Shown here one piece after another: positions 24,634-42,793 of a stretch of DNA of 60,650 nucleotides. Below the pieces are notes generated by a model that saw nothing but the letters and a program-made list of their open reading frames with translations, searched no databases and had not been told where the DNA came from. Within the stretch, counting starts at the first letter, position 1. Each line of letters starts with the position of its first letter. Made by a program: the position numbers and the translations under genes. The DNA comes from an uncultured bacterium (lineage in GTDB: Bacteria; UBA8481): contig CAZCME010000001.1 of NCBI GenBank assembly GCA_964499705.1, positions 447,243 to 507,892 of the forward strand, in the 5' to 3' direction.

Positions 24634-27078
24634 ATGGCTAAATTCGGCAAGCTCGCGATTGACTTCGGGTCCAGCGCGATCAAGTTCATTCAGATCGGCG
24701 GCAAGCCGGATGCTCCGAAAATCGAGAAGATCGACAGGGCTGTCATCACGGCGGCCGCCGGAGAAAACGCCGATGTTTTTCCCAAGCAGGCCGTTTCCGC
24801 GGCGCTGAAAGAACTTATCGCTCGCAATAAACTCGGCAAGACGAAGAAAGTCGCCATCACGATTCCGGGACAGGCCGCCATCATCAGGACGGTCAAGATC
24901 CAGGAAGCGCCACCCGAGCGCATTGCTCAGATTGTCCGGTATGAAGCGGAACCGCTCGTGCCTTTCCCGCTCGACGAATGCGCCTTCGGTTACAAGGTCA
25001 TTCAGCATGTCAAGGGTGAAGGCGGCGCGGCCGGCTCGATGAAGGTTCTTCTCATCGCCGTCAAGAACGAGCGCATCAATGATTACGTCGAAGTATTGCG
25101 CGAAAACAACATCATTCCCGAACTGATCGAAGTGGCGCCTTATTCGAGCGCGAACGCATTCAAATCGGTTAATGCGACGGAAACGGACGCGGTCGCCCTC
25201 GTGGATTTCGGTCACGGAACAACGGATATATCCGTCATACGTAACGGCGAGATGGAATTCACGCGAGCCGCCACGGTTGCGGGGGTTTCGTTCACGCAGG
25301 CTCTTCAGTCGAAGCTGAATGTTTCACTCGATGAAGCGGAACGATTAAAGAGGACGAAGGTGAGAATCAGCACCGCGGCTCCGCAACGAGGAGCGCGAGG
25401 GCCTCAGGCCCGGCCTGGAATTCCAGCACCGGCCGGAGGGCCCCCCGCCCCGGCTGGACCTCCGGGTGCGCCACCACGTCCGATGGGGCCGGGTGGACCT
25501 CCATCTGCCGGCGGACCCGGTGGACCTCCGCCCATGCCGGCCGGACCCGGTGGACCTCCGCCCATGCCGGCCGGACCCGGTGGACCTCCGCCCATGNNNN
25601 NNNNNNNNNNNNNNNNNNNNNNNNNNNNNNNNNNNNNNNNNNNNNNNNNNNNNNNNNNNNNNNNNNNNNNNNNNNNNNNNNNNNNNNNNNNNNNNNGAGC
25701 ACCACCTCCGCCTGCCGGCCCGCCGCCCGCCGGTGGACCGCCGAAGCCGCCCGGCCCTGGAGCGCCACCAGCACCAAGCGGACTGATGGGCGCGAAGCCG
25801 CCTGGACCACCTCCCGCACCCGGCGGATTAATGGGCGCGAAGCCGCCTGGGGCCCCTCCTGCACCCGGCGGATTGATGGGCGCAAAGCCGCCTGGACCAC
25901 CTCCCGCACCCGGTGGACTAATGGGTGCGAAGCCGCCCGGTGCCCCTCCGGCAGCCGGTGGACTGATGGGCGCGAAGCCGCCCGGTGCCCCGCCCGCACC
26001 CGGTGGACTAATGGGTGCGAAGCCGCCTGCTCCGCCATCCCCGCCGCCACCACCTCCTCCACCATCCGGTGGTCAGGAGCCCAGTGCGGATCCGGGAGCT
26101 TCTGCAGGCGCGGAGGAGATGAGCACCATTGTTCAGCCACTGGCGGAGCGCATGCTCGCGGAAATCCGTCGTTCGCTCGAATACTTCTCATCCCAGGAAG
26201 ATGGTGTACCTGTGACGAGAATGTACATCACCGGTTCCGGCGCCAAGCTTTCCGGCCTCAAGGAGTTTCTGAGCGCGCGATTGAATCTGGAGATTGTCGA
26301 GCTGGATGCGTTCGGTATCGCGAAGTTGCCGTCGACGGGCGTGGAGGATCCATCCGCTTATCAGACGGTATATGGATTGGCGGTGCGGCTGCTCTCGCCC
26401 GCGGATGCGACCCTCAATCTGCTGCCCAGCAATCTGCTCGCGAGCCTCGCCGGCGAAGCCAAGAAAATCTGGGCGAAGTATGCGTCTATTCTCGGAATCG
26501 TGCTCATAGCCGAAGCGGGAGGATGGTGCTGGCTTAAATACGATCATCGAAAAACCAATGTGGAATTTCTCCGCGCGGAATACGAAGGCCCCGTCAAGCT
26601 CGGCACCAAGCCATTCACGATCGACGACAAGCCGGTCCTGCATAAGGAAGTGCTCGAACGCATCGCCGAGGTTCAGAAGCGCCGCGATCAGCTGGATGTC
26701 CGCTTCCAGGCCATTCACGAACTGGAGGTCACCAAGTACGATTGGATCGCGATCCTCCACGGGATCCAGCGCGTGATACCGGATAAGGCGTGGATCGCGG
26801 ACGCCGGATTCAGCCTCGGCTCCAGCGGCCTTGCTCTCAACATGAGGACGACTGAGGAGGACAATCCCCGGGTCATGTACAACAGCATCAACAACTCCCC
26901 CTTCCTCGAATGGGGCGGCGGCGGCATCAGCGTCAACCAGGTCGAGGAGCGTGGCCAGAAGATCTGGCAATGGTCCGTTCCCTTGAAGTTCAAGTTCCGT
27001 CCGGCGGGCGCCGCCGACGTCGATGAAAATGGCCAGCCGATCCACGCTTCGTTGCCCACGATCGAGAAGGAGGAGTAG
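24634..27078 (+). CDS. pilM: Type IV pilus PilM-PilN fusion with a long Pro/Gly-rich insertion (spans an assembly gap)
   Basis: PilM motifs LAIDFGSSAIK, LVDFGHGTTDI, SLDEAERLK, EIRRSLEYF, ITGSGAKLSGL. The frame continues into PilN-like TLNLLP, a TM, a coiled coil and DWIAILHGIQRVIPDKAWI. Length across the N gap is uncertain. Confidence 0.85.
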   Translation: MAKFGKLAIDFGSSAIKFIQIGGKPDAPKIEKIDRAVITAAAGENADVFPKQAVSAALKELIARNKLGKTKKVAITIPGQAAIIRTVKIQEAPPERIAQIVRYEAEPLVPFPLDECAFGYKVIQHVKGEGGAAGSMKVLLIAVKNERINDYVEVLRENNIIPELIEVAPYSSANAFKSVNATETDAVALVDFGHGTTDISVIRNGEMEFTRAATVAGVSFTQALQSKLNVSLDEAERLKRTKVRISTAAPQRGARGPQARPGIPAPAGGPPAPAGPPGAPPRPMGPGGPPSAGGPGGPPPMPAGPGGPPPMPAGPGGPPPMXXXXXXXXXXXXXXXXXXXXXXXXXXXXXXXXXXAPPPPAGPPPAGGPPKPPGPGAPPAPSGLMGAKPPGPPPAPGGLMGAKPPGAPPAPGGLMGAKPPGPPPAPGGLMGAKPPGAPPAAGGLMGAKPPGAPPAPGGLMGAKPPAPPSPPPPPPPPSGGQEPSADPGASAGAEEMSTIVQPLAERMLAEIRRSLEYFSSQEDGVPVTRMYITGSGAKLSGLKEFLSARLNLEIVELDAFGIAKLPSTGVEDPSAYQTVYGLAVRLLSPADATLNLLPSNLLASLAGEAKKIWAKYASILGIVLIAEAGGWCWLKYDHRKTNVEFLRAEYEGPVKLGTKPFTIDDKPVLHKEVLERIAEVQKRRDQLDVRFQAIHELEVTKYDWIAILHGIQRVIPDKAWIADAGFSLGSSGLALNMRTTEEDNPRVMYNSINNSPFLEWGGGGISVNQVEERGQKIWQWSVPLKFKFRPAGAADVDENGQPIHASLPTIEKEE
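25488..26030 (+). repeat. Coding tandem repeats within pilM: 30-bp units (GPGGPPPMPA) and six ~45-bp units (GLMGAKPPGxPPAxG)
   Basis: Repeated CCCGGTGGACCTCCGCCCATGCCGGCCGGA runs into the gap; six GGAYTRATGGGYGCRAAGCCG starts lie between about 25780 and 26030. Confidence 0.9.
25597..25696. other. Scaffold gap (100 N)
   Basis: Run of 100 Ns inside the tandem-repeat region; probably a placeholder for an unknown length. Confidence 0.99.
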
Positions 27079-27080
27079 CG

Positions 27081-27827
27081 ATGAACAAGAACATCGTGTA
27101 CGTCACGCTCCTCCTGGGCCTCGGCGGATACTTCGCCTACGACACGTATTATCCGGAGTATGTTAAATGGGAATCGGAGATCGAGGAGCTTCAGAAGAAG
27201 ATCGATACAGCCAAGCAGAATGCTCCGAAGCTTGCGGACCTCCGGAAGGACGAGCAGCAGCTCAAGTCCCGCCTGCGCGCTTCTCTGGCGCAATTGCCTT
27301 CAGGGGCGGAGCTGACCGACCTGATGGTCATGGTCATGCCGCTCCTCGAGGAATGCGGCATATCCTCGTCGCGCATCACGCAGAAGAGCGTGGACAATCC
27401 CCAGTTGCAGCAGGTGTATCGCGTTCATCCGATCAAGATCAGCGGCATCAAGGATCTGTCCATGCAGACCATCATAGAAGTGATGCACAAGATTCGGGAG
27501 TTCAAGCGTATCATTAATGCCAAGAGCGTCCGGATGCAGCGGACCGGGCCCGACCGCTACACGCTGGATATGGACCTCGAAACGTATTCGTATATCGAGA
27601 CGGAAGGCGAGGATCTGGGCCTCGAAGAGGAGCCCGTTCCCGAGGAAACGCCCGCGACCCCGGCGGCTGAGACGACGCCCGCGGAGACGGAAAGCAGCGG
27701 CGAAACACAGGCCGCGGCGCCGGTGACCACCGAGGACACGCAGACCGCCGACGCGGAAAATGCGACCGAAACGGAGCAGGCCGGAGCGCCGTCGGACACG
27801 GGCGCCACGGCCGAAGGAGCGCGCTGA
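27081..27827 (+). CDS. pilO: Type IV pilus assembly protein PilO
   Basis: N-terminal TM, coiled coil, LAQLPSGAELTDLM, YRVHPIKI, IREFKRIINA, LETYSY; acidic tail; position after pilMN. Confidence 0.82.
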   Translation: MNKNIVYVTLLLGLGGYFAYDTYYPEYVKWESEIEELQKKIDTAKQNAPKLADLRKDEQQLKSRLRASLAQLPSGAELTDLMVMVMPLLEECGISSSRITQKSVDNPQLQQVYRVHPIKISGIKDLSMQTIIEVMHKIREFKRIINAKSVRMQRTGPDRYTLDMDLETYSYIETEGEDLGLEEEPVPEETPATPAAETTPAETESSGETQAAAPVTTEDTQTADAENATETEQAGAPSDTGATAEGAR

Positions 27828-28650: not shown

Positions 28651-31600
28651 TTGATCGGTCTGCGCATGCGCTTGCGCGCGTCATCCTCGCCCTTTATCCG
28701 GCTTGTACCCGTGTTCTCGACATTGATCGTGCTCCTGGCGATGCTTCATGCGCCTGTCCAATCCCAGCAGCTCATCATCGAAGCTGGACCGGTTGCTTCC
28801 TTCGAAATCACGGCTCCGTCGATCGCGCGCGTCGGCGAGCGGATCGCGATCCGCGTCACGGCCCGGGACGCGGCCGGAAATATCGCGCGCACTTACGATA
28901 AATCCGGCGGCTCCGTCAATCTCAGCACGACTCCCGCGCCCTCGGGCGGTGAAGCCGTCGAGCCGAATCGTTTTGCGGCCTCCGCGTTTCGCGATGGAGT
29001 CCTGGACGCGACGGTCACGCTCATGCGCGCCGGGACATACGAGCTCCTTGTGGAGGATCCCGCCGCGCGCGTGTCCGCGAGGACGGGCCGGATCGACGTC
29101 AAGCCCGGCGAAGTCGCCTCCATCAGGGTGATGCCTCCGCAGGAAGCGCGCGTCGGCGAGGCATTCGACGTCGCCATCGAGCTGTATGATCGCTACGGAA
29201 ATTCGGTCTCGGACTACGACCGATCCGGATCGGAAGTGAGAATCAAACAGGGACTGGCCGGCAGCGTCGGGCGCTTCGAGCCCGCATCGGTATCTCCGTC
29301 GCTCTTCTCGCAGGGGCGAGCGACCGTTCGCGTGCGGTATTCCCAGGCTGAAAACGCGGTGATCCTTGTCGAGGCGGGGACGGCGCGCGGCGTGTCGAGC
29401 CCGGTCAATGTGCGCGCCGGAGAACTGGATCGCTTCATCGTGACGCTTCCCGCACGGAAGGTGATCGCGGGGGAACCTTTCGGGATTGTCGTCGAGGCGC
29501 GCGACGCGGGCGGCAACACGATCACCGATTATAACCGTGTCGGCGGCGTCGTTTCGCTCCGGTCGACCGGCACCGGCAATATCGAACCTTCCTCCTTGCC
29601 GCCCACTGCGTTTTCGTCGGGCATCGCCATGGTGAACGTGCGGTATAACATCACGGAGAAGATCGGGCTGATCGCGGAGGATCAGACGGGATCCAAGCGC
29701 GGCGAGAGCAGCGAGAAACTGGAAGTGGTCGGAGGCCGGCTCGGCCGGATCGAGATCGTTCCGGCGGAGAACGCCCGAGCCGGCGCGCCCCTGGCGGTGC
29801 AGGTTCTCGGCTATGACATCTTCGGCAATTTCATCCGCGACTACTCGGAACGGCACATGCGCATCATCGTTTCTTCCGCCGATGCCGCGCCGCTCGAAGC
29901 TCCCGTCGTCACCTCCTCATCCTTTCGAACCGGAGTCGCCATGATCACCGTGACGCCCGTCAAGGCGGGCATGCTCATCATCCAAGCGGTCGACGATGTT
30001 TCGGGCGCCGGCGGCCGGTCCGTTCCGGTGAGAGTCAAGTCCGGCGTCGTCGCGTCCTTCTCGATCCGTACGCCGCTGGCCGCCGTGGCTCACGAGCCTT
30101 TCGATGTGGAGGTGACGGCGCTCGACAGGTTCGGCAATGTCATCGATGATTACAACCGTGTCGGGGCCGGGGTCGTCGTGGACCGGCCGGGCCAGGGTGA
30201 AGTGTCGCCCGTATCGATTCCGCCGTCCGCTTTCGTGGACGGGACCGCGCGCGTGAACCTGACATACAACACGGCGGAAGAGATCACGCTTTCGATGACC
30301 GAGCAGGGCGGCACGGCGCGCGGCAAAAGCAATCCGCTCGTCGTGACGCATTCGGCTCCGAAGCGCTTCATCGTCAAGTCCGGCACGCATGCCGCCGCGG
30401 GAGATCCGTTCCGCGTGACGATCACGGCGGTGGACGATTTCGGCAATCCCGTCTCCACCTATTCCGCGCTCAATCGCACCGTGTCGTTGTACCTGGAAAA
30501 CGGCGATCCGGTCGCACCGCCGGTCTTTTCGTCCGCGACGTTCCGGCGCGGAATCGCGGAACTGGACGCGGTGTTTTTTCGAACGGGCGACGCGGTACTT
30601 GTCGCCGAGGAACTGGGCGGCGCCGTTTCTGGAAAGTCGGGCGTCGTGCGCGTGCTGCCCGGCCGCCCCTCCCAACTGATCGTGGCGGCCCCTGCTTCCG
30701 TCGAAGCGGGATCGCCCCTGGCCATCCGCATCGAGGTCAAGGACCGGCTCGGCAACCGCATTCGCGATTACTCGCCTGCGGCGGCGTCGCTGACGCTCAA
30801 GATCGTCTCCCCGAACGGCGAAGTGCTTCCCAATTATGTCTCGCTCGGCGACATATCGAGAATGGTATTCCGCGAAGGGGTAGCGGAACTCTCCGTGCTG
30901 CCCCGGCAGGTGGGAGCGATCGTGTTTGAAGTGGGCGACGAGATGATGAATATCGCGGGGCGGTCCCAGCCGGTGCGCGTCACATCCGGTCCCGTGGATC
31001 ACTTCAAGGTGGAGAGCCTGTCGCAGGGATCTCTGCGCGCGGGCGAACCTCTGAAACTGCGAGTCACGGCTCTCGATGCGTTCGGCAATCTGGTGACGCA
31101 GTACGGCCGGGATGGAAGCGGAGCGCGGCTGATGGCGCAGACGAAGTCGGGCGCAGGAATGGTGCCCGCGTCAGGAGTGTTCGTGCCCTCGACGATCCGG
31201 GGCGAAGCGTTCCATGAGGGTGTCGCGGAGATCTACGCGCTGTACGACAAGGCGGAAGCGGTCGACGTGCTCGTCGATCGGCTCGCGTCTGGCGCGACGG
31301 TCCGGCCTGAAGTCGTGGCCGCGGCGGCCACCGTGCGCGCCGGCGGCACGCTCATTTCCATCATCGGCAATTCTCCGCTCGCCATGGGCGACGCCCGTCG
31401 CCTGACGGAATCGCTCCTGGAGATGATGATCCCGGGCGCGATCCTCTCTTCCAAGGGAGTCGGCGTGTCGCGGCAGAGCGGCATCGTTTCGCTCGTCACG
31501 CTGTCCCAGACGGACGAAGGTGTCCGCGTGCTCATTCACGCCATGGGACCCGCGGTCATGCGCGCGGGCACGGATGCGAACCGCGTCGTCATCGATGTGG

Positions 31601-32307
31601 ATCCGGTGATCGCGGGGTCATCGAGCCGCCAGCCGGTCCTGGTTCCCGCCGAGGCATCCGGTTCGCCGCCGATCCGCCGGGATATCCCCACACTTCCCGC
31701 GCAGAACGCGGCTCCGGTGGCTCCGGTCGCTCCCGCCGCGAGCGCATCCCGCATGACGGATGTGGACCGGCTCGTCCGGGAGAATCGTTTCCCGGAGGCG
31801 CTTACGGTCGTGGACGAGCTGATCAGCGGAAATCCGAGCGACGCTTCGCTCCGTAATCTCCGTCGTCGTCTCGAAACGCTCACGAACATCATGAAGCAGC
31901 CTGCCGCTTCGGCGGCGCCGTCGCAGTCCATGTCGACCTCGACGAATCCCATGATGCCCGTGACCCCGATGGTGACAATGCCTCCTTCGCCCGAGGTGCC
32001 GGTACTCCCGATGATGCCGCAAAATCAATCTTTACAACCGCCTTCGCAGGCGATACAAATCCCAGACAAGTCTGTTCCAGCGGTTGTTCCGTCGCCCGTT
32101 CCGCCCGTCGCACCAACACCTCTTCCGGGCAAGCCTGAGGCTTCGGAGGACATGGTCGCGATGGAAGCGGCCGTTCGCGCCGGAAAGTATCGTGAGGCAT
32201 TGACGATATTGGACCGGCACATCGCGGCCAATCCGCAGGATTCCACCGCGGCAAGAATGAGAATACGAATTGAACAGATGATCAAAATATTGGACGGACA
32301 ACAGTGA
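28651..32307 (+). CDS. Large exported protein: 8 tandem Ig-like repeats, an AMIN-like domain, Pro-rich linkers and two TPR-like hairpins
   Basis: Signal peptide ..LHAPVQS; eight ~100-aa repeats F.I.AP..A.AGEPF.V.VTA.DxxGN...Y; C-terminal hairpins ENRFPEALTVVDELISGNPSD and AGKYREALTILDRHIAANPQD. The start may be ATG 28666. Confidence 0.82.
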   Translation: MIGLRMRLRASSSPFIRLVPVFSTLIVLLAMLHAPVQSQQLIIEAGPVASFEITAPSIARVGERIAIRVTARDAAGNIARTYDKSGGSVNLSTTPAPSGGEAVEPNRFAASAFRDGVLDATVTLMRAGTYELLVEDPAARVSARTGRIDVKPGEVASIRVMPPQEARVGEAFDVAIELYDRYGNSVSDYDRSGSEVRIKQGLAGSVGRFEPASVSPSLFSQGRATVRVRYSQAENAVILVEAGTARGVSSPVNVRAGELDRFIVTLPARKVIAGEPFGIVVEARDAGGNTITDYNRVGGVVSLRSTGTGNIEPSSLPPTAFSSGIAMVNVRYNITEKIGLIAEDQTGSKRGESSEKLEVVGGRLGRIEIVPAENARAGAPLAVQVLGYDIFGNFIRDYSERHMRIIVSSADAAPLEAPVVTSSSFRTGVAMITVTPVKAGMLIIQAVDDVSGAGGRSVPVRVKSGVVASFSIRTPLAAVAHEPFDVEVTALDRFGNVIDDYNRVGAGVVVDRPGQGEVSPVSIPPSAFVDGTARVNLTYNTAEEITLSMTEQGGTARGKSNPLVVTHSAPKRFIVKSGTHAAAGDPFRVTITAVDDFGNPVSTYSALNRTVSLYLENGDPVAPPVFSSATFRRGIAELDAVFFRTGDAVLVAEELGGAVSGKSGVVRVLPGRPSQLIVAAPASVEAGSPLAIRIEVKDRLGNRIRDYSPAAASLTLKIVSPNGEVLPNYVSLGDISRMVFREGVAELSVLPRQVGAIVFEVGDEMMNIAGRSQPVRVTSGPVDHFKVESLSQGSLRAGEPLKLRVTALDAFGNLVTQYGRDGSGARLMAQTKSGAGMVPASGVFVPSTIRGEAFHEGVAEIYALYDKAEAVDVLVDRLASGATVRPEVVAAAATVRAGGTLISIIGNSPLAMGDARRLTESLLEMMIPGAILSSKGVGVSRQSGIVSLVTLSQTDEGVRVLIHAMGPAVMRAGTDANRVVIDVDPVIAGSSSRQPVLVPAEASGSPPIRRDIPTLPAQNAAPVAPVAPAASASRMTDVDRLVRENRFPEALTVVDELISGNPSDASLRNLRRRLETLTNIMKQPAASAAPSQSMSTSTNPMMPVTPMVTMPPSPEVPVLPMMPQNQSLQPPSQAIQIPDKSVPAVVPSPVPPVAPTPLPGKPEASEDMVAMEAAVRAGKYREALTILDRHIAANPQDSTAARMRIRIEQMIKILDGQQ

Positions 32308-35300
32308 TAAAAAGCGGCAAGCGCAAGTCATTCTTCATCCTTCACACTTCCACCTTCATCCTTGCCTTATTGTGCCTGGGATTTTTCAGCGGGGACGCTC
32401 AGTCCCAGACGGCTCAGCAGGCCCAGGCGAATCCCGCCCTGGAACAGGCCGCTCTTTATTTCGCGCTCGGTTCCTTCGACGCGGCCGAAGCGGAAGTGCG
32501 GCGTTTTCTCTCGATGTATCCGGATCATGCGAGAAAAGGGGAGGCGATCAGCCTGCTGGCGGAGATCCGGATCGAGAAGGAGCGATCGAGAATCACGGCC
32601 ACCGCTCCTGACGTCTCAGGCTCCAGGGAAAATGTCCAGCCCGACAGGAACACAGGCGGCGCCACGCCGAAGGTTCTCGATCCCGCGATCCTTTCGTCTC
32701 CGCGCACCGAAGCTCCGGTCAAGTGGGAGAAGCAATTCCCGGGCGAACCATCGCAATTCCGGAAGGATGGCATCTATGCCGTCACGGCGAATGGCGAGGG
32801 ACCTCGCTCCACCATTCGCATTCTCTTCTCCGGCACCGGCGATGTTTCGTTCAGGCGGACCGGCTCGTCGCTGCTGATCGAGGTGGCCGGAGTCGCCGAT
32901 GCGTTGCCGCGCGGCAATATCGACCTGCCGGGCGGAGGCGCGACGCGGATCCGCCACGTGCAGGCGTCCACGGAACCTCTGGTGTCGAGAATCTCGATCG
33001 ACCTGAAGAGCGCGGAAGTGAAGGCGACGGTCACGCCGGCGGGTGAGGAGATCGTCGTCGAGATCGAGGATATCTCCAGCTCGACCGATCAGGCCGCGCC
33101 CCAGGGCGGGCTTTATCGGTCGCCGATTCCGTCGGATCGATACCGCGTCGACATCCTCGGCGGCAACTTCCAGCGAGCGCTCGTCGCGGACGGCTTGACG
33201 GAAGCCCTCGTCGTCAAGGTCGTGGATCGCTCCACCAACGCGCCCGTCGCGAACGCGACCGTGGAATTCTTCACGGTCAACGAGGGGATGAAACTTTCGG
33301 ACAAGTCCATGATGACCGGCCCCGCGGGTTCTGCTTCGACGAGGGTGACCCTGGACCAGGTCGCGGGCCGCAAGATCGTGACCGCGCGTGTCATGGGAAC
33401 GCCCGCCGAAGTTTCGTTCGAATTGTACGCATTGCCCCGGCCTCCGGACTCGATCCGGAAGGTATCCGGAGAAGACGCCAAGGTGAGGACGCGCCAGACC
33501 GTGGCGACGCCGCTTGTAGCCGTGGTGCAGGACATCTATGGAAATCCGGTGCCGGGCGTGGCCGTGGAGTGGGATTACATTTCCGGCGGCGGCAAGATCG
33601 ACGCGGACGTCGAGGCGCTGGGATCGCAGACGAAGATCGAGACCGACAAGGACGGCCGCGTCACGCTGAGGCAGTGGACGACGGGCGCGCAGGCGGGGGA
33701 ACACAGGATCCAGGCGTCGTTCACGTCGGGCGAGATCACGAAGTACGCTCAATTCTCGATCAACGTTGATCCCCAGCTTGTCTCCATGGACTTCTACCAG
33801 ACTTCCGTGCCCGAGATACTCCGGTTCCTCGGTCGGATCGCGAACTGGAACCTCGTTCTCTCCGACGGCGTCTCCAAGTTGATCGAGGCCGACGCCATGA
33901 TCACGGTCCATCTCGAGAATGTGCCGATCGACGACGCGCTCGACAAGATCCTCGCGACGAAGAAGCTGGCGCGGATCGAGGAACCGGACGGATCGATCAA
34001 GATCATGACCTTCATCGAGGCGCAGACGCGGGGCCAGTCGGTCATCACGGACCCGTCCCAGCTCGATGTGCTCCCGCAGGACATGGTGCGGACCGTCGTC
34101 CTCAACATCGCCCCGCGTTCAGACTTCGGAGCGACGGTGGGATCGATCCAGCCCCTGATGACGGAGCAGGGCAAGATCATCTCCGACCCGGCGAGCCGCA
34201 AGGTGGTCGTGACGGATTATGTTTCCGTGATTCGCCGCATCCGAGACATTCTTGTCGAGTTCGAGAAGGCGGAAGACCGGCGGATCCTGACGTTTGAGAA
34301 TCTCAATTTCGAGGCGGAGCAGCTCAAGGCGTTCATGACGCAGCAGCTCCCCCCCGAAGTGAAGACGCTCTACATGGGCCGCACCGCCGTGCTCCTGGGT
34401 CCGACCACGGCGATCGACCGTATCGAGAATATCCTGCGCGCTCTCGATACGAACGAAGGCATCATCCGCCCGGGCGACGAAGTGCAGGGCAAGCAATTCG
34501 AGATCATCCCGCTCCGGTCGCAGAAAGCGACGGAGCTCGCCGGGATTCTCCTGTCCGTCTTCACGACGAACCAGCGCGCCCAGCAGCTTCTCTCCAGCGT
34601 GAACGTGAACGTCCGCGAGGAGCGAGTGACGAACACGACGACGACGGCCGGCACGACGGGCCAGGCGGCGCAGACAACGCAGACGGCGGCCGAACCTCGA
34701 AGCGCCGCGTCGCAGGCGACGAACCTGCTCGGTAAAGCGTTCCAGCAGATCCAGGAGGAAGTGCGGATCGTCGCGGAGCCGCGCACGAATTCGCTGATTC
34801 TGTATGGACTGGCGAGCGATCTGGCGATCGTCAAGCAGGTCATCCAGCGCCTCGATTCGATCGATCTCGCGACCGAGGAACTTTCCCGCGACAAGGTCAA
34901 GATCATTCAGCTCCAGTTCCGCAGTTCCGCCGAGGTACTGACGGCTCTGCGGCAGATCATGAATCTCGAAGGCACGGCCACGACGGATGTAAATCCGGCC
35001 ATGGGATGGTGGAATTATTGGTACACGGGAGGCGTTACAACAACATCGGTGGGCGCGTCCAACACGGCTACTCAACTCGGAGTGGCAGGAACATTCACGG
35101 AGACGCAGCCGCTTCCCTTGAAAATATTCGATATTGCCGATCCGAATCTCATCATCATCGTGGGCGGCGATTCCAAGCAGCGACTGCTGGCGACGACCCT
35201 GATCGACGATCTCGACCAGGCTGTGACGAGGACGGGAAATTATCTCCAGCTGTATTCCATGAACCACGTCCTTCCCAGCGAATTCAACAAGCTGCTGGAG

Positions 35301-38300
35301 AAGACGGTCATCAACGACGTGGGAATGAACGATGCCGACTTCTATCTCTGGTGGTATTTCGGCCGCGCGCGGAGAACATCCGAAGTGCGGCGCATACCGA
35401 TCGACGCCTCCAAGCTGCTCCTCGTCTGGGCGCGCCGTGAAGTGCATCAGCAGATTTCCGATCTCCGGGACAAGATCGACAACGAGAATTACGCGAAGAT
35501 CTCCGACATGGTCGTGAAAGGCTATTCGGTCAAGCACGCGGATGTGTACACCGTCGCCCAGATTCTGACGCGGAATACGTTGAATCAGAGCGAGGACATC
35601 ACCGACGAATTTCTCTTCGTCGACAAGCTCGACAGCCGCATCGTCGTTTGGGCGCGCGAGGGCAGCCACGCCAAGATCGAGAAGATGCTGCCGCAGGTCG
35701 ACCGCCCCGAGCTCCGCTTCGACCCGCTTCTGAAATACGAGATCTACGAGTTCCAGAACATCTCGGTCGCGGAGGTCATCGGCGTGACGACGGCGGCGGA
35801 GCGGGACATCGTCCAGGACGCCGCGGGCTTCGGGCAGGCGGCCGCCACGACCGTCACTTCGAAGACCATCCTGCAACTCATCGCGGAGCCGCTGGGAACG
35901 GATCCTGGCCGCGGCATCTATCCGTCGATCACGGGCAATTTCATCCTGGTCTGGGGCCCGAACGGGCCGGTGGACAGGTCGATCGAGTTTGCCAAGCAGA
36001 TCGACCGCCGTTGGGAGAAGACAAAGATCGTCGTGAAGACGTACGAGATCAAGTACGGCGATCCGAAGACCGTAGCCAATTTCATCAACGCATCGATCTT
36101 CTCGGCCGCGACAGGCGGGGCCGCTGCGGCGGGCGCGGGTCAGGCCGCGGCTCCACCTTCCACCGAATTTCTTGTTCATGATGCGGCATCGCCGAAAAGG
36201 CTCCATATCTGGGCGCTTCCGGCTACTCATGATCGGATCAGGGGATACCTCTCCACGATCGATACCACGGCCTTCAGCTTCTCGAACTTCAAGATCTTCC
36301 GCGTCCCGGGCCTCTCGCCGAACGCCGCGGAGGAGATCATCAAGGGCGTGGCGCCCTCCGCGACGCTCTTCCAGGTCGGGGATCTCTGGATCATCATCGC
36401 CGATGTAGGTCCGCTCCAGAAGGTGGAAGAACTGATGCGGGCGATCACGAGGCCTGACACGGAGCCCATGACGATCCGCTACCTTCAGCTCTCCCGGTTG
36501 ACGACGCAAGATATCGTGCCGATTCTCGGACCGCGCTTCGGCATCACGATCGGCACGGAGGAATTCTCGGGCCGGTCGATCTTCACCATCAACAATGAGG
36601 AGGAGCTGAGGCGCTACGAGTCCTTCAGGAACGCGCAGCGATCACGGTCGCCGTTGACGGTTCTCGTCATGGAACGCCACAACATGCTCATCCTGATCGG
36701 CGACGAGATCTACGTGAAGCAGTGCGAGGATTTCGTCGGCGAGGTCGAGAACTCGACATCCGGGCGGCCGCGACTCGTGAGATTGCGCTATGTGGCTCCG
36801 CTCGTCTTTGCCGCCACCCTGAAGGAAATCTACCCGAATCTTCGGACATTCGACATCGGCCGCAACGATGCGATCGTCGTGATGGAGCAGGACGATACCG
36901 GCAAGGTCAACGCGCTCCTGCATATCATCGATCGTTCGCCCCGGGAAGGGGACACGGTCCCCGTGTACGAGATCGTCCAACTGAGGAATCGCGCCGCGAA
37001 CGAGGTCCAGACGGCAATCACGACACTTCTGACGAGCATCGGCACGTCGAGCGGCCGGTCCAATACGCCGCTGACTCTCTACGCGATCCAGGACGCCAAT
37101 GCTCTCGTTCTGACCGGCGGCAACCAGGAAGAACGAAACCTTGCCCGCAGAATCGCCATCGACATGGATTCGGAACCGTACAGGCAGAACAACTACATCC
37201 TTCTGTACACGTTCAAATATATTCTCCCGACGGAATTCGACAATTTTCTAGTCGCGACGATTGTCGACGAGCGGACGGAGCGTATCACGACGGGAACCGC
37301 GACGGCGGAAGAGGGCCGCACGACGATCACGCAGACGATCACGAACGCGAAGCGCATCCCCATCGATTCCCTGAAGCTTTTGATGGTCCGGACGACACGC
37401 GAGATCCATCAGCAGATCAGCGACCTCATCGCGCTCGTCGATACCGCGGGCTTCGGCGAAAAGCTCGAGTTGCGGCAGAGATATTACAATGTCAAGAATG
37501 CGTCGCTGGACGTGATCGCGAACATCATTCAGCGCCAGACGCTCAATCAGCACTCCGGAATCGCGGACGAATTCGTCATCATCGACCGCCAGAACCGCCG
37601 GCTCGCCATATGGGCCCGCGAAGGCGCCCACACGAAGATCGAGCGGCTGCTGCCGGTCTACGACAAGACCGAAGTGCAGTTCGATCCCGACGATGAGTTC
37701 GATTCGTACGTTCTGCAATATGTGTCCTTGCCGATTCTCCAGCAGGGAATTCAGATCATCGAGCAGATCCAGACGATTCTGGGACCCGGGCGCGTCGTTT
37801 ATTCCTCGGGCGGCGCCGCCGGCAACTTTGTCCTGATGTGGGGCAACCGCGCGGCTCTCAGTCGCGCCAAGGAGACGCTCCGCCGCCTCGACATGGCGGT
37901 GAAGGATCAGGTCGGCGGTGAATCCAACGTGCGGTTCGTGGAGATCCACAATCGGCCGGTCACGGAACTCATGGCGGAATTGAAGGGTCTCTACGGCCTC
38001 AATACCAACATGATCCCGATGAGCCGCGCCGACGGAAGCCCGAAGAACGGGCTCATGCTCTTCGTTCCTCACGCGCTCCTGGGGCCGATCCTGAAGACGA
38101 TCGAGGCGCTCGATACCACCACGCCGGTCATGATCGTTCCGGTGGCGCGGCGTAGTCCCACGGATCTCGCCGATCTGTTGACGATCCAGTACCCGGAGCT
38201 CAGCATCACGGCGTTCACGACTCCAAGCGCCCTGCTGTTGCGCGGATCGGCTCGTCGGCTCGCCGATGCGAAGCGTTTGATCGAGCAGCTGGACACGACG

Positions 38301-41300
38301 GGTTTCATCCGCATGTTCACACTGCAGGTGGCTCCGCCCGCCGAAGTCATGGCGAGCCTGCAGCTGATGTTCCCCGGAGTGCTCTTCGTCGCGATTGCGG
38401 ATAACCAGCTTGTGTACGCCAGGGCGGGCAACGAGGCGACCATGGCGCAGATCGAAAGCGCGGTGAAGGCCCTCGATGCGCTGGATGTGGAGATGATCGA
38501 GATCATGAAGGCGGACGACGACGGCATCTCCGATGTTCTCCGTCCCGCTTTCCCGTCGCTCCTCATCGAATACCAGCACCAGGGCCCCATGCACACCTAC
38601 ATGGTCCTGAAGGGCGCCCGCAACCTGATTGCGCAGGCCAAGGAATTGATCAAGAGGATGGAGAACATCGACGCGCACATCGTTCGCCTGGCGTATCGCA
38701 CTCCCTTGGAGATCTCCAATCAGATCGCCATCATCTACCAGGATCTGTCGATCGGACTATTTCCCGTGGCGGGGATAAACGCGATCGGTTTCATCGCGAC
38801 TCCCGAGAAGGCCAAGCTCGTGAAGGACCTCATCCGGACGCTGGATACGCCCGCGACAATCGCCTACTACCAGTTGAAATACATGTCCACCGCCGACCTG
38901 CTGCCGGCGATCACGGCGACGGTGACCAACGTGATCACGACCGAGATCACGTCTCCGGTTGTCTACGGAAACACCTGGATGATCTTCACCGGTGATCGCG
39001 GTCCCGTGCAGGATGCGGTGAATGTCGCGACCATGCTCGACACGGTCACGCCCACGATCATCCTCTCGCCGAAAATCCAGACGAGCGCCCAGATGACCAC
39101 AACCTTGTTGGCCGCCATACCGAATCTGCGCGTTCTCGCGTTCACGGGAACGGCGGGCGGGGACTACATCCTGGTCACCGGATCGCAGTCGCTGATTCGA
39201 GAAGCGAAGAAGATCTTCGCGGAGATCGACACGGAACTCCCGACCCGGATCTTCCGCTCCTCCTATCTTCACACCCAGCCTGATCTCCTGAACGTCATCA
39301 CCAGCCTCTTCCGCGATATCCGGACGATTTCGCTCGGAACGTCGGCGGGCGGCGGGTTCGAGATGGTGCTCGCAACGGGTCCGCAGTCCCGTCTGGACGA
39401 GCTGGCCCGGTTCTGGGCCACGGTGGATACCCCGGGCCGGATGGTCCCGTACTGGCCCGTGAATCGACCTCTTGCGGATCTGCTGACGCCCCTGGGCGAG
39501 CTCATGCCTCATGTCGGACGGATCGCCGTCGCCAGCGCCACCGGCATCGCGCCGGATGTCGTCATGCTCTATGGCGATGCTCCGCGTGTTGAAGAAGCGC
39601 TCGACTTCCTCCGGAAGATCGACGTCGCCGGCGATGTGAAGCTCCTCGCCTACGGTCGTCTTGCCGCCGCGGATGCCTCGGCGCTGGTGGCCGCCTATTT
39701 TCCCGCGATCACGCTCCAGTCGCTCTCCAACGGCAGCATCCTCGCGGTCGCGGGCAACAAGCAGGTGCTGCAAGCCGCGGAGAAACTTCTTTCGGAGATT
39801 GAGAATGGGCTCCACTGGCGCATCGTTCCCCTGATCCGCATGACAGCTGTACAGGCGGAGGCGCTCGTGACCGATCTCTTCGGATCCGTCCGCGTCACGC
39901 AGCTTCCCGCCGGCAACGGCGTCGTGCTCGTCGGCACCGAGGTGAACCTCGCGGAAGCCATCGATATGCTCCGGCGCATCGACCAGCGCGAAGTGACGCT
40001 CATCCCGATCAAGGAAGCCGACCTCGCGACGCTGGCCCAGGCCGCGACGGCGTTCTTCCCGGAGGCTCAGATTTCGCAGATGGCCACGATCAACTCGCTG
40101 GCGATTTCCGCCGACACGGCCATGGTCGCCGCCATCAGGAAATTCATCGAGAGCGTCGACAAGGAGCGCCACACCGCGATCCGGCCGCTGAAGTACTACG
40201 ACCCGACGACATCCGGCGAGCTCGGCGAACTGACGACGACACTGCAGTCCTACCTCTCGGCTGACGGAACGATCTTTTTCGACCGGCAGTCGAACGCCTA
40301 CGTGATGTCGGACGGCATCGCGAAGCTGGAGAAAGCGCTGAAAGTGCTCGACGATCTCGATCGCGCTCCCCCCCAATTCATCATCGAGGCCGTGATCGCG
40401 GAAGTGAGCATCAGCGACGCCAAGAACCTCGGCTTCTCCTGGTCATACAGGCCCGACCTGACGGCTGTCGGGCTGGCGCCTCCGGCGCTCCTGACCATCC
40501 CGGCGTCCGGCGGATCGAACGCGGACTTCGGAGGCTCGGGAACGTTCACGCTCGGACTCGCGCGCGATAATCTGCAGGCGACCCTTTCCGCGCTCCTGTC
40601 CAAAAACGACGCCCGGATCGTCGCGACGCCGAAGATCGTCACCAGAAACAACGTCACCGGCGAAGTCAGGCTCCAGCAGAGCTTCCCCGTGACGACGACG
40701 AATCCCGGCACAGCGACCACGGCGCCCTCGACCACCGTCACGTTCCAGCCCGTCCCGACGACGTTGCGGGTGACGCCGTCGTCCTCGTGGAATTCCGACG
40801 CGATCCGGATGACGGTCGCGGCCGACATCAGCGTGCCCGGCGCCGCCACGACGACGGGCGCCGTCCCGGTCTCCTCGCGGATCGTCAACACGACGGTCGA
40901 CATGCGGGATGGCCAGACGCTCATCATCGGCGGGCTCATGCAGAAGAACAAGACGGAGGCCGTCTCCAAGATCCCGATTCTCGGAGACATACCAGGCATC
41001 GGAAATATCTTCAAGTCCACGACGACCGGCGAGGAGAATCGCGAGGTTCTCATCTTCCTTTCTCCGCGCGTCATCTATCCGCAGACGCACGATCTGCAGA
41101 TGGAGGAAGAGCTGAATCGATACAAGTATCTTGTCAACTTCCCCGTGGACTGGTCCGGCCGCCGCTGGCTCATCAACAACCAGCAGCGCTCGCCCGGACT
41201 GCGGCAGCAGATGAACCAGGGCAGCAATTTCATCCTGCAGCCGCCGGGAACTCCCGCGCCTTCGACGCCACCGCCGCCGGCGCCCGTCGTTCCGCCCGCC

Positions 41301-42452
41301 GAAGGGCGATCGTCGATGGCTCCCGCGACGACGAGCATGCCGCCGTCCTACATCGCCCCGATGATTGCTCCGAGCGCACCCGCTCCGCAACCGACCTACA
41401 CGCCGGCTCCTCAGCCGGTATCGGAGCCGGCCTTCCTCGGCGGCGTTACGACGACATGGAATATCAACACGGCGACGGCCGCCGAATTGAAGATGATTCC
41501 CGACATGCCGCCGCACGTGGCTCAACTGATCGTCGCCTACCGCAATGCGAATGGTTCGTTCCAGACGTTGAACGATCTTCTGAATGTCCCGGGGATGACA
41601 CCGGACATACTCGAACGATCCCGCAAATACCTGCGGATGACTTCCGAGACGACGATGGTCGCGCCGACACCGCCCGCGGCGAACATGCCGCCCGCGCCCA
41701 TGACGATCACGCCCATGGCCTCATCGAACCTGGTGAACATCAACACGGCCGGCGTGGCGGAGCTGATGACGCTGCCGGGACTGACCGAAGCGAACGCGCG
41801 GATGATACTCGCCTATCGCGGCACGTACGGTTCATTCTCCACGCCCGATCAATTGATCGACGTCCCGGGCATCACGCCGACGATGTATGGCGCCATCCGC
41901 GACAGGGTGACCGTGTCCAGCGCTCCGCCGCCGTCCTATGCGCCCCAGCCGTCCTACACGCCCCAGCCATCCGCGATGCCGAGCGCCTATTCGCAACCGA
42001 TGTCCGGACCCGTCAACATCAACACCGCCGACGAAGTGGCGCTCATGCAGATCGGATTTTCGGAGCAGAACGCGAAGTTGATCGTCGCATGGAGAAGCAG
42101 CTACGGATTCTTCACTTCGATCGACGAGCTTCTCGATGTTCCATCGATCACGAGCGACATACTCGATCCGATCCGGCCCTGGCTGACGATCGGCGGAGGT
42201 TCCGCTCCCGCGGCGCCGGCGCCCGCGCCTTCCTCCTACACGCCGCCCGCTCCGAGCGGAAACCTGGTGAACGTTAACACGGCGGACGAAGTGACGCTCA
42301 TGCAGCTGGGATTATCCGAGCAGAATGCGAAGCTGATCGTGGCATGGAGGAACAGTTACGGCCCGTTCAATACCCTGGAGGAATTGCTGGACGTGCCGTC
42401 GATAACGCAGGAAATATTCGACCGGGTCCGGAACCGCCTGACTCTCCGGTAA
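32304..42452 (+). CDS. Giant outer-membrane secretin (PilQ/GspD family, 3382 aa) with AMIN, 2 Ig-like, STN, ~28 N-domains, secretin core and 4 ComEA-like HhH domains
   Basis: Signal peptide; STN (VSMDFYQTSVPEILRFL..ITVHLENVPIDDALDKIL); repeated NolW/N-domains ending ..I..LD. Core motifs LDRAPPQFIIEAVIAEVS, ATPKIVTRNN, DGQTLIIGGL, KIPILGDIPGIGNIFKS, EVLIFLSPRVI. Four (V/W)N(I/V)NTA...A.(L/M)I(V/L)A(Y/W)R...G.F....L..VP units. Confidence 0.92.
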   Translation: MIKSGKRKSFFILHTSTFILALLCLGFFSGDAQSQTAQQAQANPALEQAALYFALGSFDAAEAEVRRFLSMYPDHARKGEAISLLAEIRIEKERSRITATAPDVSGSRENVQPDRNTGGATPKVLDPAILSSPRTEAPVKWEKQFPGEPSQFRKDGIYAVTANGEGPRSTIRILFSGTGDVSFRRTGSSLLIEVAGVADALPRGNIDLPGGGATRIRHVQASTEPLVSRISIDLKSAEVKATVTPAGEEIVVEIEDISSSTDQAAPQGGLYRSPIPSDRYRVDILGGNFQRALVADGLTEALVVKVVDRSTNAPVANATVEFFTVNEGMKLSDKSMMTGPAGSASTRVTLDQVAGRKIVTARVMGTPAEVSFELYALPRPPDSIRKVSGEDAKVRTRQTVATPLVAVVQDIYGNPVPGVAVEWDYISGGGKIDADVEALGSQTKIETDKDGRVTLRQWTTGAQAGEHRIQASFTSGEITKYAQFSINVDPQLVSMDFYQTSVPEILRFLGRIANWNLVLSDGVSKLIEADAMITVHLENVPIDDALDKILATKKLARIEEPDGSIKIMTFIEAQTRGQSVITDPSQLDVLPQDMVRTVVLNIAPRSDFGATVGSIQPLMTEQGKIISDPASRKVVVTDYVSVIRRIRDILVEFEKAEDRRILTFENLNFEAEQLKAFMTQQLPPEVKTLYMGRTAVLLGPTTAIDRIENILRALDTNEGIIRPGDEVQGKQFEIIPLRSQKATELAGILLSVFTTNQRAQQLLSSVNVNVREERVTNTTTTAGTTGQAAQTTQTAAEPRSAASQATNLLGKAFQQIQEEVRIVAEPRTNSLILYGLASDLAIVKQVIQRLDSIDLATEELSRDKVKIIQLQFRSSAEVLTALRQIMNLEGTATTDVNPAMGWWNYWYTGGVTTTSVGASNTATQLGVAGTFTETQPLPLKIFDIADPNLIIIVGGDSKQRLLATTLIDDLDQAVTRTGNYLQLYSMNHVLPSEFNKLLEKTVINDVGMNDADFYLWWYFGRARRTSEVRRIPIDASKLLLVWARREVHQQISDLRDKIDNENYAKISDMVVKGYSVKHADVYTVAQILTRNTLNQSEDITDEFLFVDKLDSRIVVWAREGSHAKIEKMLPQVDRPELRFDPLLKYEIYEFQNISVAEVIGVTTAAERDIVQDAAGFGQAAATTVTSKTILQLIAEPLGTDPGRGIYPSITGNFILVWGPNGPVDRSIEFAKQIDRRWEKTKIVVKTYEIKYGDPKTVANFINASIFSAATGGAAAAGAGQAAAPPSTEFLVHDAASPKRLHIWALPATHDRIRGYLSTIDTTAFSFSNFKIFRVPGLSPNAAEEIIKGVAPSATLFQVGDLWIIIADVGPLQKVEELMRAITRPDTEPMTIRYLQLSRLTTQDIVPILGPRFGITIGTEEFSGRSIFTINNEEELRRYESFRNAQRSRSPLTVLVMERHNMLILIGDEIYVKQCEDFVGEVENSTSGRPRLVRLRYVAPLVFAATLKEIYPNLRTFDIGRNDAIVVMEQDDTGKVNALLHIIDRSPREGDTVPVYEIVQLRNRAANEVQTAITTLLTSIGTSSGRSNTPLTLYAIQDANALVLTGGNQEERNLARRIAIDMDSEPYRQNNYILLYTFKYILPTEFDNFLVATIVDERTERITTGTATAEEGRTTITQTITNAKRIPIDSLKLLMVRTTREIHQQISDLIALVDTAGFGEKLELRQRYYNVKNASLDVIANIIQRQTLNQHSGIADEFVIIDRQNRRLAIWAREGAHTKIERLLPVYDKTEVQFDPDDEFDSYVLQYVSLPILQQGIQIIEQIQTILGPGRVVYSSGGAAGNFVLMWGNRAALSRAKETLRRLDMAVKDQVGGESNVRFVEIHNRPVTELMAELKGLYGLNTNMIPMSRADGSPKNGLMLFVPHALLGPILKTIEALDTTTPVMIVPVARRSPTDLADLLTIQYPELSITAFTTPSALLLRGSARRLADAKRLIEQLDTTGFIRMFTLQVAPPAEVMASLQLMFPGVLFVAIADNQLVYARAGNEATMAQIESAVKALDALDVEMIEIMKADDDGISDVLRPAFPSLLIEYQHQGPMHTYMVLKGARNLIAQAKELIKRMENIDAHIVRLAYRTPLEISNQIAIIYQDLSIGLFPVAGINAIGFIATPEKAKLVKDLIRTLDTPATIAYYQLKYMSTADLLPAITATVTNVITTEITSPVVYGNTWMIFTGDRGPVQDAVNVATMLDTVTPTIILSPKIQTSAQMTTTLLAAIPNLRVLAFTGTAGGDYILVTGSQSLIREAKKIFAEIDTELPTRIFRSSYLHTQPDLLNVITSLFRDIRTISLGTSAGGGFEMVLATGPQSRLDELARFWATVDTPGRMVPYWPVNRPLADLLTPLGELMPHVGRIAVASATGIAPDVVMLYGDAPRVEEALDFLRKIDVAGDVKLLAYGRLAAADASALVAAYFPAITLQSLSNGSILAVAGNKQVLQAAEKLLSEIENGLHWRIVPLIRMTAVQAEALVTDLFGSVRVTQLPAGNGVVLVGTEVNLAEAIDMLRRIDQREVTLIPIKEADLATLAQAATAFFPEAQISQMATINSLAISADTAMVAAIRKFIESVDKERHTAIRPLKYYDPTTSGELGELTTTLQSYLSADGTIFFDRQSNAYVMSDGIAKLEKALKVLDDLDRAPPQFIIEAVIAEVSISDAKNLGFSWSYRPDLTAVGLAPPALLTIPASGGSNADFGGSGTFTLGLARDNLQATLSALLSKNDARIVATPKIVTRNNVTGEVRLQQSFPVTTTNPGTATTAPSTTVTFQPVPTTLRVTPSSSWNSDAIRMTVAADISVPGAATTTGAVPVSSRIVNTTVDMRDGQTLIIGGLMQKNKTEAVSKIPILGDIPGIGNIFKSTTTGEENREVLIFLSPRVIYPQTHDLQMEEELNRYKYLVNFPVDWSGRRWLINNQQRSPGLRQQMNQGSNFILQPPGTPAPSTPPPPAPVVPPAEGRSSMAPATTSMPPSYIAPMIAPSAPAPQPTYTPAPQPVSEPAFLGGVTTTWNINTATAAELKMIPDMPPHVAQLIVAYRNANGSFQTLNDLLNVPGMTPDILERSRKYLRMTSETTMVAPTPPAANMPPAPMTITPMASSNLVNINTAGVAELMTLPGLTEANARMILAYRGTYGSFSTPDQLIDVPGITPTMYGAIRDRVTVSSAPPPSYAPQPSYTPQPSAMPSAYSQPMSGPVNINTADEVALMQIGFSEQNAKLIVAWRSSYGFFTSIDELLDVPSITSDILDPIRPWLTIGGGSAPAAPAPAPSSYTPPAPSGNLVNVNTADEVTLMQLGLSEQNAKLIVAWRNSYGPFNTLEELLDVPSITQEIFDRVRNRLTLR

Positions 42453-42530
42453 CACATCATCCGCATCCGGCAATCGCCGAATCTCATCCCGTTCATTCAG
42501 GTCTTCAAGAATCCGGCGGAAATATAATCC

Positions 42531-42659
42531 TGCGGCGGAGTGGATTTGCCTTCGTTCGTCGGCATCCTGCCTCCTCGCTTCGGCCCGGGGCGAACGCTTC
42601 TCGCGGCATCCTGCCGCTCGGTCCCCGCAGGGGACACGGCGTACGCCCTTCAAATCCAC
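42531..42659. repeat. Duplicated tRNA-Leu 3' end plus a REP-like hairpin module
   Basis: TGCGGCGGAGTGGATTTG (42531-42548) matches tRNA 42710-42727 at 17/18. Inverted GTGGATTTG/CAAATCCAC ends enclose two GGCATCCTGCC copies. Confidence 0.7.
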
Positions 42660-42675
42660 GAGACCCGACAAAGAG

Positions 42676-42706
42676 AAAAGGCCCCCGCTTCGCAGGGGCC
42701 TTTTTT
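42676..42706. terminator. Bidirectional intrinsic terminator between the secretin operon and tRNA-Leu
   Basis: AAAAGGCCCC-cgcttcgca-GGGGCCTTTTTT. Confidence 0.85.
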
Positions 42707-42709
42707 CTC

Positions 42710-42793
42710 TGCAGCGGAGTGGATTTGAACCACCACGGTATTGCTACCGCCAGCCCCTCAAGCTGGTGCGTCTGCCAGTTCCGCCACCGCTGC
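42710..42793 (-). tRNA. tRNA-Leu(GAG)
   Basis: GCAGCGGTGGCGGAACTGGCAGACGCACCAGCTT-GAG-GGGCTGG, long variable arm, GGTTCAAATCC T-arm; CCA not encoded. Confidence 0.96.

Follow-up and report, generated by a model that had tools for sequence, protein, structure and literature searches.

The window analysed here, a stretch of 60,650 nucleotides from an uncultured bacterium (GTDB lineage Bacteria; UBA8481; GenBank assembly GCA_964499705.1, contig CAZCME010000001.1, positions 447,243 to 507,892 of the forward strand), contains a gene for a giant secretin (P0001, 32304..42452, + strand; all coordinates are those of the window). We slightly favour the reading that its product is a functional outer-membrane secretin of the GspD/PilQ superfamily, in which N0 and about 28 N-domains would form a long trans-envelope conduit equipped with four DNA-binding-type helix-hairpin-helix (HhH) domains. 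The gene starts with GTG, shares four nucleotides (GTGA) with the stop of an upstream gene for a 1218-aa protein and forms a single open frame of 10.1 kb without internal stop. At 3382 aa, the protein is about five times the usual length of a secretin. It consists, in this order, of a signal peptide, TPR-like helices, a beta-sandwich, two Big_1 immunoglobulin-like (Ig) domains, an N0/STN domain, 28 Secretin_N-type units, the secretin core and four HhH domains; by its core, N-domains and N0 it is a member of the secretin superfamily. This domain make-up is conserved in the lineage, and the gene lies in an operon with those for PilM and PilO. The original prediction, made from the letters of the DNA, of a giant 3382-aa secretin is borne out, as one open frame encodes a full secretin core and far more N-domains than any characterised secretin has. 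It did not mention the four C-terminal HhH domains, the two Big_1 domains or the upstream 1218-aa Ig-repeat gene.

Secretin core

The core, a beta-barrel followed by a C-terminal helix, occupies residues 2692-2950 (40377..41153, + strand) based on Pfam, AlphaFold2 and Foldseek. Pfam Secretin (PF00263) matches residues 2763-2924 (40590-41075) with 131.4 bits against a cut-off of 27.5, covering positions 1-168 of the 169 in the profile. An intact core had been placed at about 40363-41075; it is indeed intact and the Pfam match runs to 41075, but 40363 falls at the end of the last N-domain unit and not at the start of the core. The AlphaFold2 model of residues 1797-2960 (mean pLDDT 67.9) has the secretin barrel at model residues 895-1128, with the C-terminal helix. 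Compared to the PDB with Foldseek, this model gave 51 matches at E<=1e-3, the best being GspD 5zdh (2e-27), and its core matched GspD, PulD, XcpQ, InvG and PilQ with E-values between 2e-27 and 2e-12. All but one among the matches listed are secretins, the exception being 9o5a_D (KICSTOR-GATOR1) with a probability of 0.23.

The subfamily is less clear. TIGR02517 (GspD) scores 158.1 bits (3e-46) against a cut-off of 351.35, and TIGR02515 (PilQ) scores 129.1 bits for a core piece and 35.5 bits for an N0 piece against a cut-off of 284.35. Since no curated subfamily cut-off is reached, the GspD and PilQ scores are not decisive.

N-domain array

Between N0 and the core, residues 592-2691 (34077..40376, + strand) were parsed into 28 Secretin_N-type units (U1-U28) based on Pfam, profiles and AlphaFold2. 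U17-U28 form a regular series with lengths of 59-70 aa (U17-U27, 59-66 aa) and hardly any linker between neighbours. U3-U16 measure 60-128 aa, and nine units of the array (including U3-U5, U7, U8, U10, U12 and U13) reach 75 aa or more through insertions.

Over the whole protein, Pfam Secretin_N scores 181.1 bits (cut-off 28.2) in eight stretches. When the units were scored one by one, nine of the 28 matched at E<=0.01 (U1, U3, U4, U12, U17, U18, U26, U27 and U28) and six more at E 0.01-1 (U6, U7, U8, U10, U13 and U20), giving 15 at E<=1 and 13 without a Secretin_N match; the curated cut-off is passed by two lone units, U3 and U17. No other Pfam family recurs among the 28 single units. AlphaFold2 covered 16 of the units (U1, U2 and U15-U28). 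[quoted passage not shown] U21 and U22 are partial, and U15 and U16 stay below a pLDDT of 50.

Profiles made from the array itself extend this support. With a leave-one-out profile, built from the other units minus the tested unit and its duplicate partner, 27 of the 28 units are recovered at E<=4e-4 and U1 at 0.012. Using hhalign, a profile of the AlphaFold2-supported units and family homologues was compared to the 18 other units, resulting in a probability of >=90% for 11 of them, 79-85% for U3, U4, U9 and U14, and the lowest values for U7 (68%), U8 (44%) and U10 (30%). With the 28-unit profile, seven full-length family members show 15-23 units and unrelated giant secretins 14-45, against 0-1 matches in shuffled or reversed copies of 30 proteins. 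Against the PDB it retrieves secretin N-domains only (15 of 15 matches at E<=0.01; GspD 5wq7 at 1.3e-17). A profile of the 13 Pfam-negative units likewise has Deinococcus PilQ (2.4e-6) and E. coli GspD (5.9e-6) on top, and all seven PDB matches at E<=0.02 are secretins. Hence, based on sequence profiles and models, 28 is probably the best unit count, with 15 units firm (Pfam E<=0.01 or an AlphaFold2 fold) and U7, U8 and U10 the least certain. The roughly 28 KH-like N-domains originally proposed are in line with this parse, the support being uneven between units; Secretin_N, STN and Secretin were all matched in the domain count suggested at the time, though for Secretin_N at E<=0.01 in nine of the 28 lone units.

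A module of three units, U5-U7 (residues ~923-1234; 35070..36005, + strand), is duplicated as U13-U15 (residues ~1574-1863; ~37023-37892) with about 40% protein identity. The repeats of the array are ancient, and this pair is the best internal match of the giant secretin when fragments are compared by BLAST; self-BLAST of the whole protein gave the identity match only, the repeats emerging with fragments. The insertions in U4 and U5 (residues ~900-1030; 35000-35100 and 35200-35500) have an unusually high content of Trp and Tyr and contain runs of W, Y and F, and the U5-U6 module contains residues that are invariant across all nine aligned family members. The invariance and the aromatic insertions are a hint that the middle of the array holds a specific binding site.

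N-terminal region

An AlphaFold2 model of residues 1-722, built with nine family sequences, has a mean pLDDT of 75.9. It starts with a signal-peptide-like N-terminus (residues 1-43, low pLDDT) and three TPR-like helices (residues 46-100; Pfam TPR_14 E 0.004), together at 32304..32603 (+ strand), followed by a beta-sandwich domain (residues 140-255; 32721..33068, + strand) that is possibly AMIN-like. Pfam AMIN has no match in the giant secretin, including this sandwich. Residues 280-489 (33141..33770, + strand) form two Big_1/intimin-like Ig domains, with a Pfam Big_1 score of 41 bits in two stretches, a pLDDT of about 86-94 and Foldseek matches to intimin D0-D1.

The N0/STN domain takes up residues 491-577 (33774..34034, + strand), where an STN domain had been foreseen at about 33775-34010. 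Pfam STN gives an E-value of 1.1e-5 and 25.5 bits, under its cut-off of 28.4, and the domain matches the start of the TIGR02515 PilQ model (E 5.4e-9, 35.5 bits). It is folded by AlphaFold2 with a pLDDT of about 80-87, and the modelled N0-U1-U2 resembles N0-N1-N2 crystal structures of XcpQ (Foldseek, E about 5e-10). The top Foldseek match of the whole N-terminal model is M. xanthus PilQ (3jc8_Q, E 4e-13).

ComEA-type tail

Behind the core, Pro/Ala-rich linkers alternate with four ComEA-type HhH domains (41181..42449, + strand; domains at 41460-41636, 41724-41912, 42009-42188 and 42261-42443). These domains were assigned with Pfam HHH_3 (PF12836; 210.9 bits, cut-off 27) and TIGR00426, the ComEA HhH region (153 bits, cut-off 53.1), each in four stretches, while the full-length comEA model TIGR01259 was just missed (144.7 against 152.35 bits). 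The likeness to ComEA, a periplasmic DNA-binding competence protein, thus lies in an HhH region over the TIGR00426 cut-off; there, however, it is a stand-alone membrane-anchored protein, whereas here it is fourfold, fused to a secretin and carried on Pro-rich tethers. ComEA captures DNA in competent bacteria, as stated in a part of PMC3879209, and the tail suggests, by analogy, DNA capture of the same kind.

Such fusions were surveyed among the candidates sharing most words with the query, i.e. 113 shorter matches and 22 long secretin matches from outside the family. Secretin and HHH_3 occur together in two of the 113, both contig-cut fragments of the giant-secretin family, and an HhH tail in none of the 22. 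Judged from these sequences, the secretin-ComEA fusion appears to be new, and it was not seen outside the giant-secretin family among the candidates scored. No description of a secretin-ComEA fusion was found in the literature, subscription journals and supplements lying outside that search.

Relatives and turnover of the array

A giant secretin with an HhH tail is present in all five genomes covered of the small phylum to which the window belongs, two members of which are labelled Hydrogenedentota or Hydrogenedentes by NCBI, and pilM lies on the same contig in three of the four relatives. The full frames of two relatives measure 2797 and 2818 aa; the two others end at contig edges. Among 5.8 billion proteins, a search for long relatives (1860-5919 aa) returned 28, six of which (2267-3242 aa) carry the PF12836 tail. 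A scan of 1.84 billion representatives added one family member of 2526 aa. In a metagenome scan yielding 65 loci, one (L101) is a true family member and the rest encode Ig-domain proteins or ordinary secretins. With 3382 aa, the window protein is the longest of its family.

The two ends of the protein have 52-74% identity to the full-length relatives P0008, P0009 and P0006, and 31-41% to the distant P0007 and P0012. Over residues ~750-2285 identity drops to 22-25% and collinearity is missing even for the closest relative; the alignment to P0006 suggests that U8-U11 are extra in the window protein. This non-collinear middle of low identity, together with the three-unit duplication, indicates that the array has been remodelled by gain, loss and duplication of units with both ends kept. 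Such changes in the middle of the array would make the length of the tube appear adjustable.

No account of pili in Hydrogenedentes was found in the literature, and the words secretin, pilus, pili, PilQ and competence are all absent from the searched text of two Hydrogenedentota genome papers.

Giant secretins of the Phycisphaerae

The other 22 of the 28 long relatives (2068-5010 aa) have no HhH tail. A genome scan with the alignment of these proteins gave at least 600 stretches, and 474 among the matches listed encode relatives. Of 80 loci kept, 78 belong to genomes with the label Phycisphaerae, Phycisphaerales, Phycisphaeraceae or Planctomycetota, one of them an isolate. The window protein is not of record size: Phycisphaerae widely encode secretins of 4000-5000 aa. 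One of them, P0033 (4596 aa), has 42 Pfam Secretin_N stretches and one secretin core. Like the window protein, these giants combine an expanded Secretin_N array with one core and, in the isolate genome, with a PilM-like gene upstream; they differ in being longer (about 3000-5010 aa), in lacking the HhH tail and in a core identity to the window protein of 25-29%. In the Phycisphaerales isolate ac7 (L050, 2881-16417) the giant secretin region consists of two open reading frames of 1428 and 2935 aa, which may be due to a frameshift or an error in sequencing, or be a real split. No paper describing giant secretins was found, again with subscription journals and supplements outside the search. The original prediction had named widespread and already characterised long secretins as evidence against it; they are widespread in Phycisphaerae, but no paper characterising them was found.

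In a quick, provisional FastTree of 276 secretin cores, the family of the window protein forms one group, nested with an SH-like support of 86 among 33 secretins of 484-974 aa. Among the ordinary neighbours listed, NCBI uses the name GspD for one, and JGI the name general secretion pathway protein D for several. No other giant occurs among the 47 nearest rows of the family, and the label 'giant' requires at least two to five origins on the tree. Since the Phycisphaerae giants stand apart from the family, the expansions look independent, and a single common origin is provisionally rejected.

Operon and genome context

Four genes precede the secretin gene on the + strand. The first (24634..27078) encodes a PilM half, scoring 163 bits with TIGR01175 (cut-off 133), a Pro-rich linker and a membrane-anchored C-terminal half whose likeness to PilN is one of position only, with no Pfam PilN match at E<=0.1 and none in NCBIfam. 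A run of 100 N (25597-25696) lies within the linker, so that in the window the two halves are joined over a gap whose length is arbitrary; in relative G003 the frame at this place is uninterrupted, with 834 aa. The second gene (27081..27827) encodes PilO (Pfam 48.3 bits, cut-off 22). The third, in the pilP position, encodes a 227-aa protein (P0005, 27827..28510) without a Pfam or NCBIfam match, the sole lead being a language-model score of 0.89 to GspC-type clusters. Its nearest language-model clusters are hypothetical proteins of Planctomycetota (0.92), and it possibly links the machines of the giant-secretin lineage and of Planctomycetes. Wedged between this gene and the secretin gene, a fourth gene (28651..32307; its stop overlaps the secretin start) encodes a secreted 1218-aa protein with about ten Ig-like repeats, a C-terminal TPR and a weak AMIN-like match. 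Large open reading frames take the same position in relatives G003 and G004, and this protein may serve the giant secretin as a strut in the periplasm or as an assembly factor.

The pilM(N), pilO and 227-aa genes abut or overlap one another. A terminator-like hairpin (42676-42704) and an opposite-strand tRNA-Leu(gag) gene (42710-42793; together 42676..42793, - strand) follow about 225 nt 3' of the secretin gene, which is thus the last gene of the operon. GspC, E, F, G, L and M were not found by Pfam among the 14 neighbouring open reading frames scanned, and no ATPase is encoded in the window.

From the partners first proposed, PilO was recovered, and from the PilMN pair PilM stands but PilN is not recognised. 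The PilP-like protein finds no backing in Pfam or NCBIfam. A complete type IV filament machine had also been envisaged, which finds no support at a locus without an ATPase, with T2SSE matches elsewhere and a second pilM/pilO locus in the genome. In type IVa pili, a pilMNOPQ operon apart from the ATPase genes is usual.

The 4.7-Mb genome (G000) has 20 T2SSE matches over the cut-off, six secretin genes, 26 prepilin-motif matches and 16 HHH_3 matches, a very large repertoire of type IV filament parts for its size. The T2SSE matches lie outside the window, the nearest on the same contig about 155 kb away. The second pilM/pilO locus is on another contig, with an 881-aa secretin and adjacent ATPases. 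The ComEC (Competence) family has four matches at three genome loci, which make DNA uptake plausible as far as sequence matches go. Within the window, a prepilin-motif gene (16818-17333) lies directly upstream of 17436-20267, which encodes a CBM9-domain glucoamylase and a protein with a weak CBM_11 match. Downstream, a 593-aa open reading frame (44579-46360) has a NADH dehydrogenase 49-kDa (NuoD) domain in its C-terminal half only (residues 320-593) and may be a NuoC-NuoD fusion opening a nuo cluster.

Proposed conduit and alternatives

On the model of other secretins, the pore would be made of 12-15 subunits, with one ring per layer of N-domains. Scaled from the 35-nm Thermus channel at 3-5 nm per ring, N0 and the 28 units would then build a tube with a length of very roughly 85-145 nm. 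Crossing an unusually wide periplasm, this tube would connect the outer membrane with the PilMNO platform and serve as the guide of a type IV filament. Each channel would bear 48-60 tethered HhH domains, which would keep DNA on its way in close to the outer-membrane end, like free ComEA.

The stacking of the domains into one very long tube is plausible by analogy with the PilQ of Thermus thermophilus. According to parts of PMC5745081 and PMC4463427, Thermus PilQ combines the secretin with six stacked rings (N0-N5) spanning most of a wide periplasm, forms a channel of about 35 nm (PMC4463427) and is exceptionally long, 'one of the largest' secretins (PMC5745081). The two proteins have in common extra beta-alpha-beta-beta-alpha N-domains, which in Thermus lengthen the channel over the wide periplasm in a system for both pili and DNA uptake (excerpts of PMC5745081, PMC4463427). 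Compared at the superfamily level, however, Thermus PilQ has 757 aa, six rings, no Ig domains and no ComEA fusion, while the giant secretin has 3382 aa and about 29 rings; the claim that it has more N-domains than characterised secretins agrees with the six rings given in the section of PMC5745081 concerned.

For core and N-domains alike, the closest structures and the top profile matches come from GspD, known from E. coli and V. cholerae (N0-N3). GspD, however, has four N-domains against about 29 here, and the giant secretin has no gsp neighbours and misses the TIGR02517 cut-off. With the type IVa PilQ of M. xanthus and P. aeruginosa it shares the order pilM...pilO...secretin, the N0 match to the PilQ model and the Foldseek match to M. 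xanthus PilQ. It differs from type IVa PilQ by the two Ig domains and TPR-like element before N0, the undetected Pfam AMIN, the unrecognised PilP and PilN, and the extra 1218-aa gene.

Several points weigh against the proposed conduit. We infer the ring stacking of 28 units from analogy, and a wide periplasm in the giant-secretin lineage is assumed. Sixteen of the 28 units were folded, four of these poorly, and U7, U8 and U10 are placed by weak profile matches. A complex prediction with four copies of U24-U26 scored 0.22 and 0.30 against a mark of 0.42, which speaks neither for nor against rings. For the core, the GspD model yields 158 bits and the PilQ model fewer, 129 bits, neither reaching its cut-off. 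The operon has no ATPase, and the second pilM/pilO locus, with its ordinary 881-aa secretin and ATPases, means that the giant secretin is not the sole candidate for a pilus channel. If the beta-sandwich is an AMIN-like peptidoglycan-binding domain, its place in a straight tube would be the inner-membrane end, which is odd. Finally, the C-terminus of known secretins is outside the barrel, on the periplasmic side; the HhH domains would therefore be outside the tube, away from DNA inside it.

Rather less probable than the rigid conduit, but deserving serious attention, is an array that does not form a rigid stack of 28 rings. The same protein might use it as a flexible, partly disordered or telescoping tether or sheath, or fold it back or arrange it concentrically, so that the outer-membrane pore stays tied to the inner-membrane platform as the distance between them varies. 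This would suit the middle of the array, where units can be gained, lost and reshuffled rapidly. Insertions bring nine of the 28 units to 75-128 aa, and some linkers between units are long. The outer N rings of solved secretins are also often poorly ordered. The low AlphaFold2 confidence at U15, U16 and parts of U21 and U22 points the same way, but is weak evidence of disorder because it coincides with poorly aligned parts. U17-U28, on the other hand, are as regular and nearly linker-free as stacked rings would be, and all six rings of Thermus PilQ are stacked in situ as far as parts of PMC4463427 and PMC5745081 describe them.

It is unlikely that the protein is instead the channel of a secretion system, for type II-like protein, polymer or slime export, with the PilM/PilO-type partners as its platform. 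Here the better score of the core with TIGR02517, the GspD structures on top of the Foldseek matches, the nesting of the core among ordinary secretins with GspD-type names and the glucoamylase and carbohydrate-binding-module genes upstream would fit, and secretins do export slime in cyanobacteria and myxobacteria (stated in a portion of PMC12475490). But the indecisive GspD and PilQ scores weaken the first of these arguments, and the proteins encoded with it in the operon are PilM, which exceeds the TIGR01175 cut-off, and PilO, with no gsp genes among the neighbours scanned. Moreover, N0 matches the PilQ model, the best structure for the N-terminal model is M. xanthus PilQ, and the ComEA-type domains point to DNA rather than exoproteins.

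An assembly artefact was also considered, as the genome is an assembly of 45 contigs with the 100-N gap in the neighbouring pilM gene. Short public contigs from four runs of two studies, one of them possibly the origin of the window, cover 31000-43500 without insertion or deletion at 99+% identity, which eases the earlier worry about a chimera, although none spans the whole gene (32304-42452). In one run there is a weakly supported odd joint from 38360 to 42009, with just 23 letters on one side. No DNA repeat above 25 nt was found in a repeat search of the array, where protein identity between the internal repeats is about 45% at most; without a long DNA repeat, confusion of the assembler is unlikely. 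The open frame of 10.1 kb, the diverged repeats, the tiling of contigs without indels and an architecture that six other database proteins share with all five phylum genomes make it exceedingly improbable that the contig is chimeric, that a repeat was expanded or that a decaying gene is being read through; a pseudogene or repeat-expansion artefact is rejected on the strength of the intact frame, the divergence and the conservation.

Significance

Textbook secretins have two to six periplasmic rings. What appears to be new here, as judged from sequence, is the extreme expansion of the N-domains together with the secretin-ComEA fusion. A conserved secretin with about 29 predicted rings, and a second lineage with 42 or more, imply hardly any limit to how often the ring module can be multiplied. 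The fusion offers a direct handle on the passage of DNA from the outer-membrane pore into the periplasm.

A more far-reaching idea, which we hold tentatively and with more doubt than belief, is that the number of N-domains is a ruler of envelope width. The five-genome phylum would then have a Planctomycete-like periplasm of about 100 nm, crossed by a 28-ring conduit for a type IV filament machine with 48-60 ComEA domains as a DNA-harvesting port, and the Phycisphaerae would have arrived separately at 42 or more rings. This idea fits in that the larger giants occur in Planctomycetota, known for an enlarged periplasm according to part of PMC11958385. If the ruler holds, N-domain counts would predict the width of the periplasm in uncultured bacteria. 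If the rings of the giant secretin stack, they would form one of the longest trans-envelope protein tubes proposed, and would explain how pili, DNA uptake or secretion work across a greatly widened periplasm.

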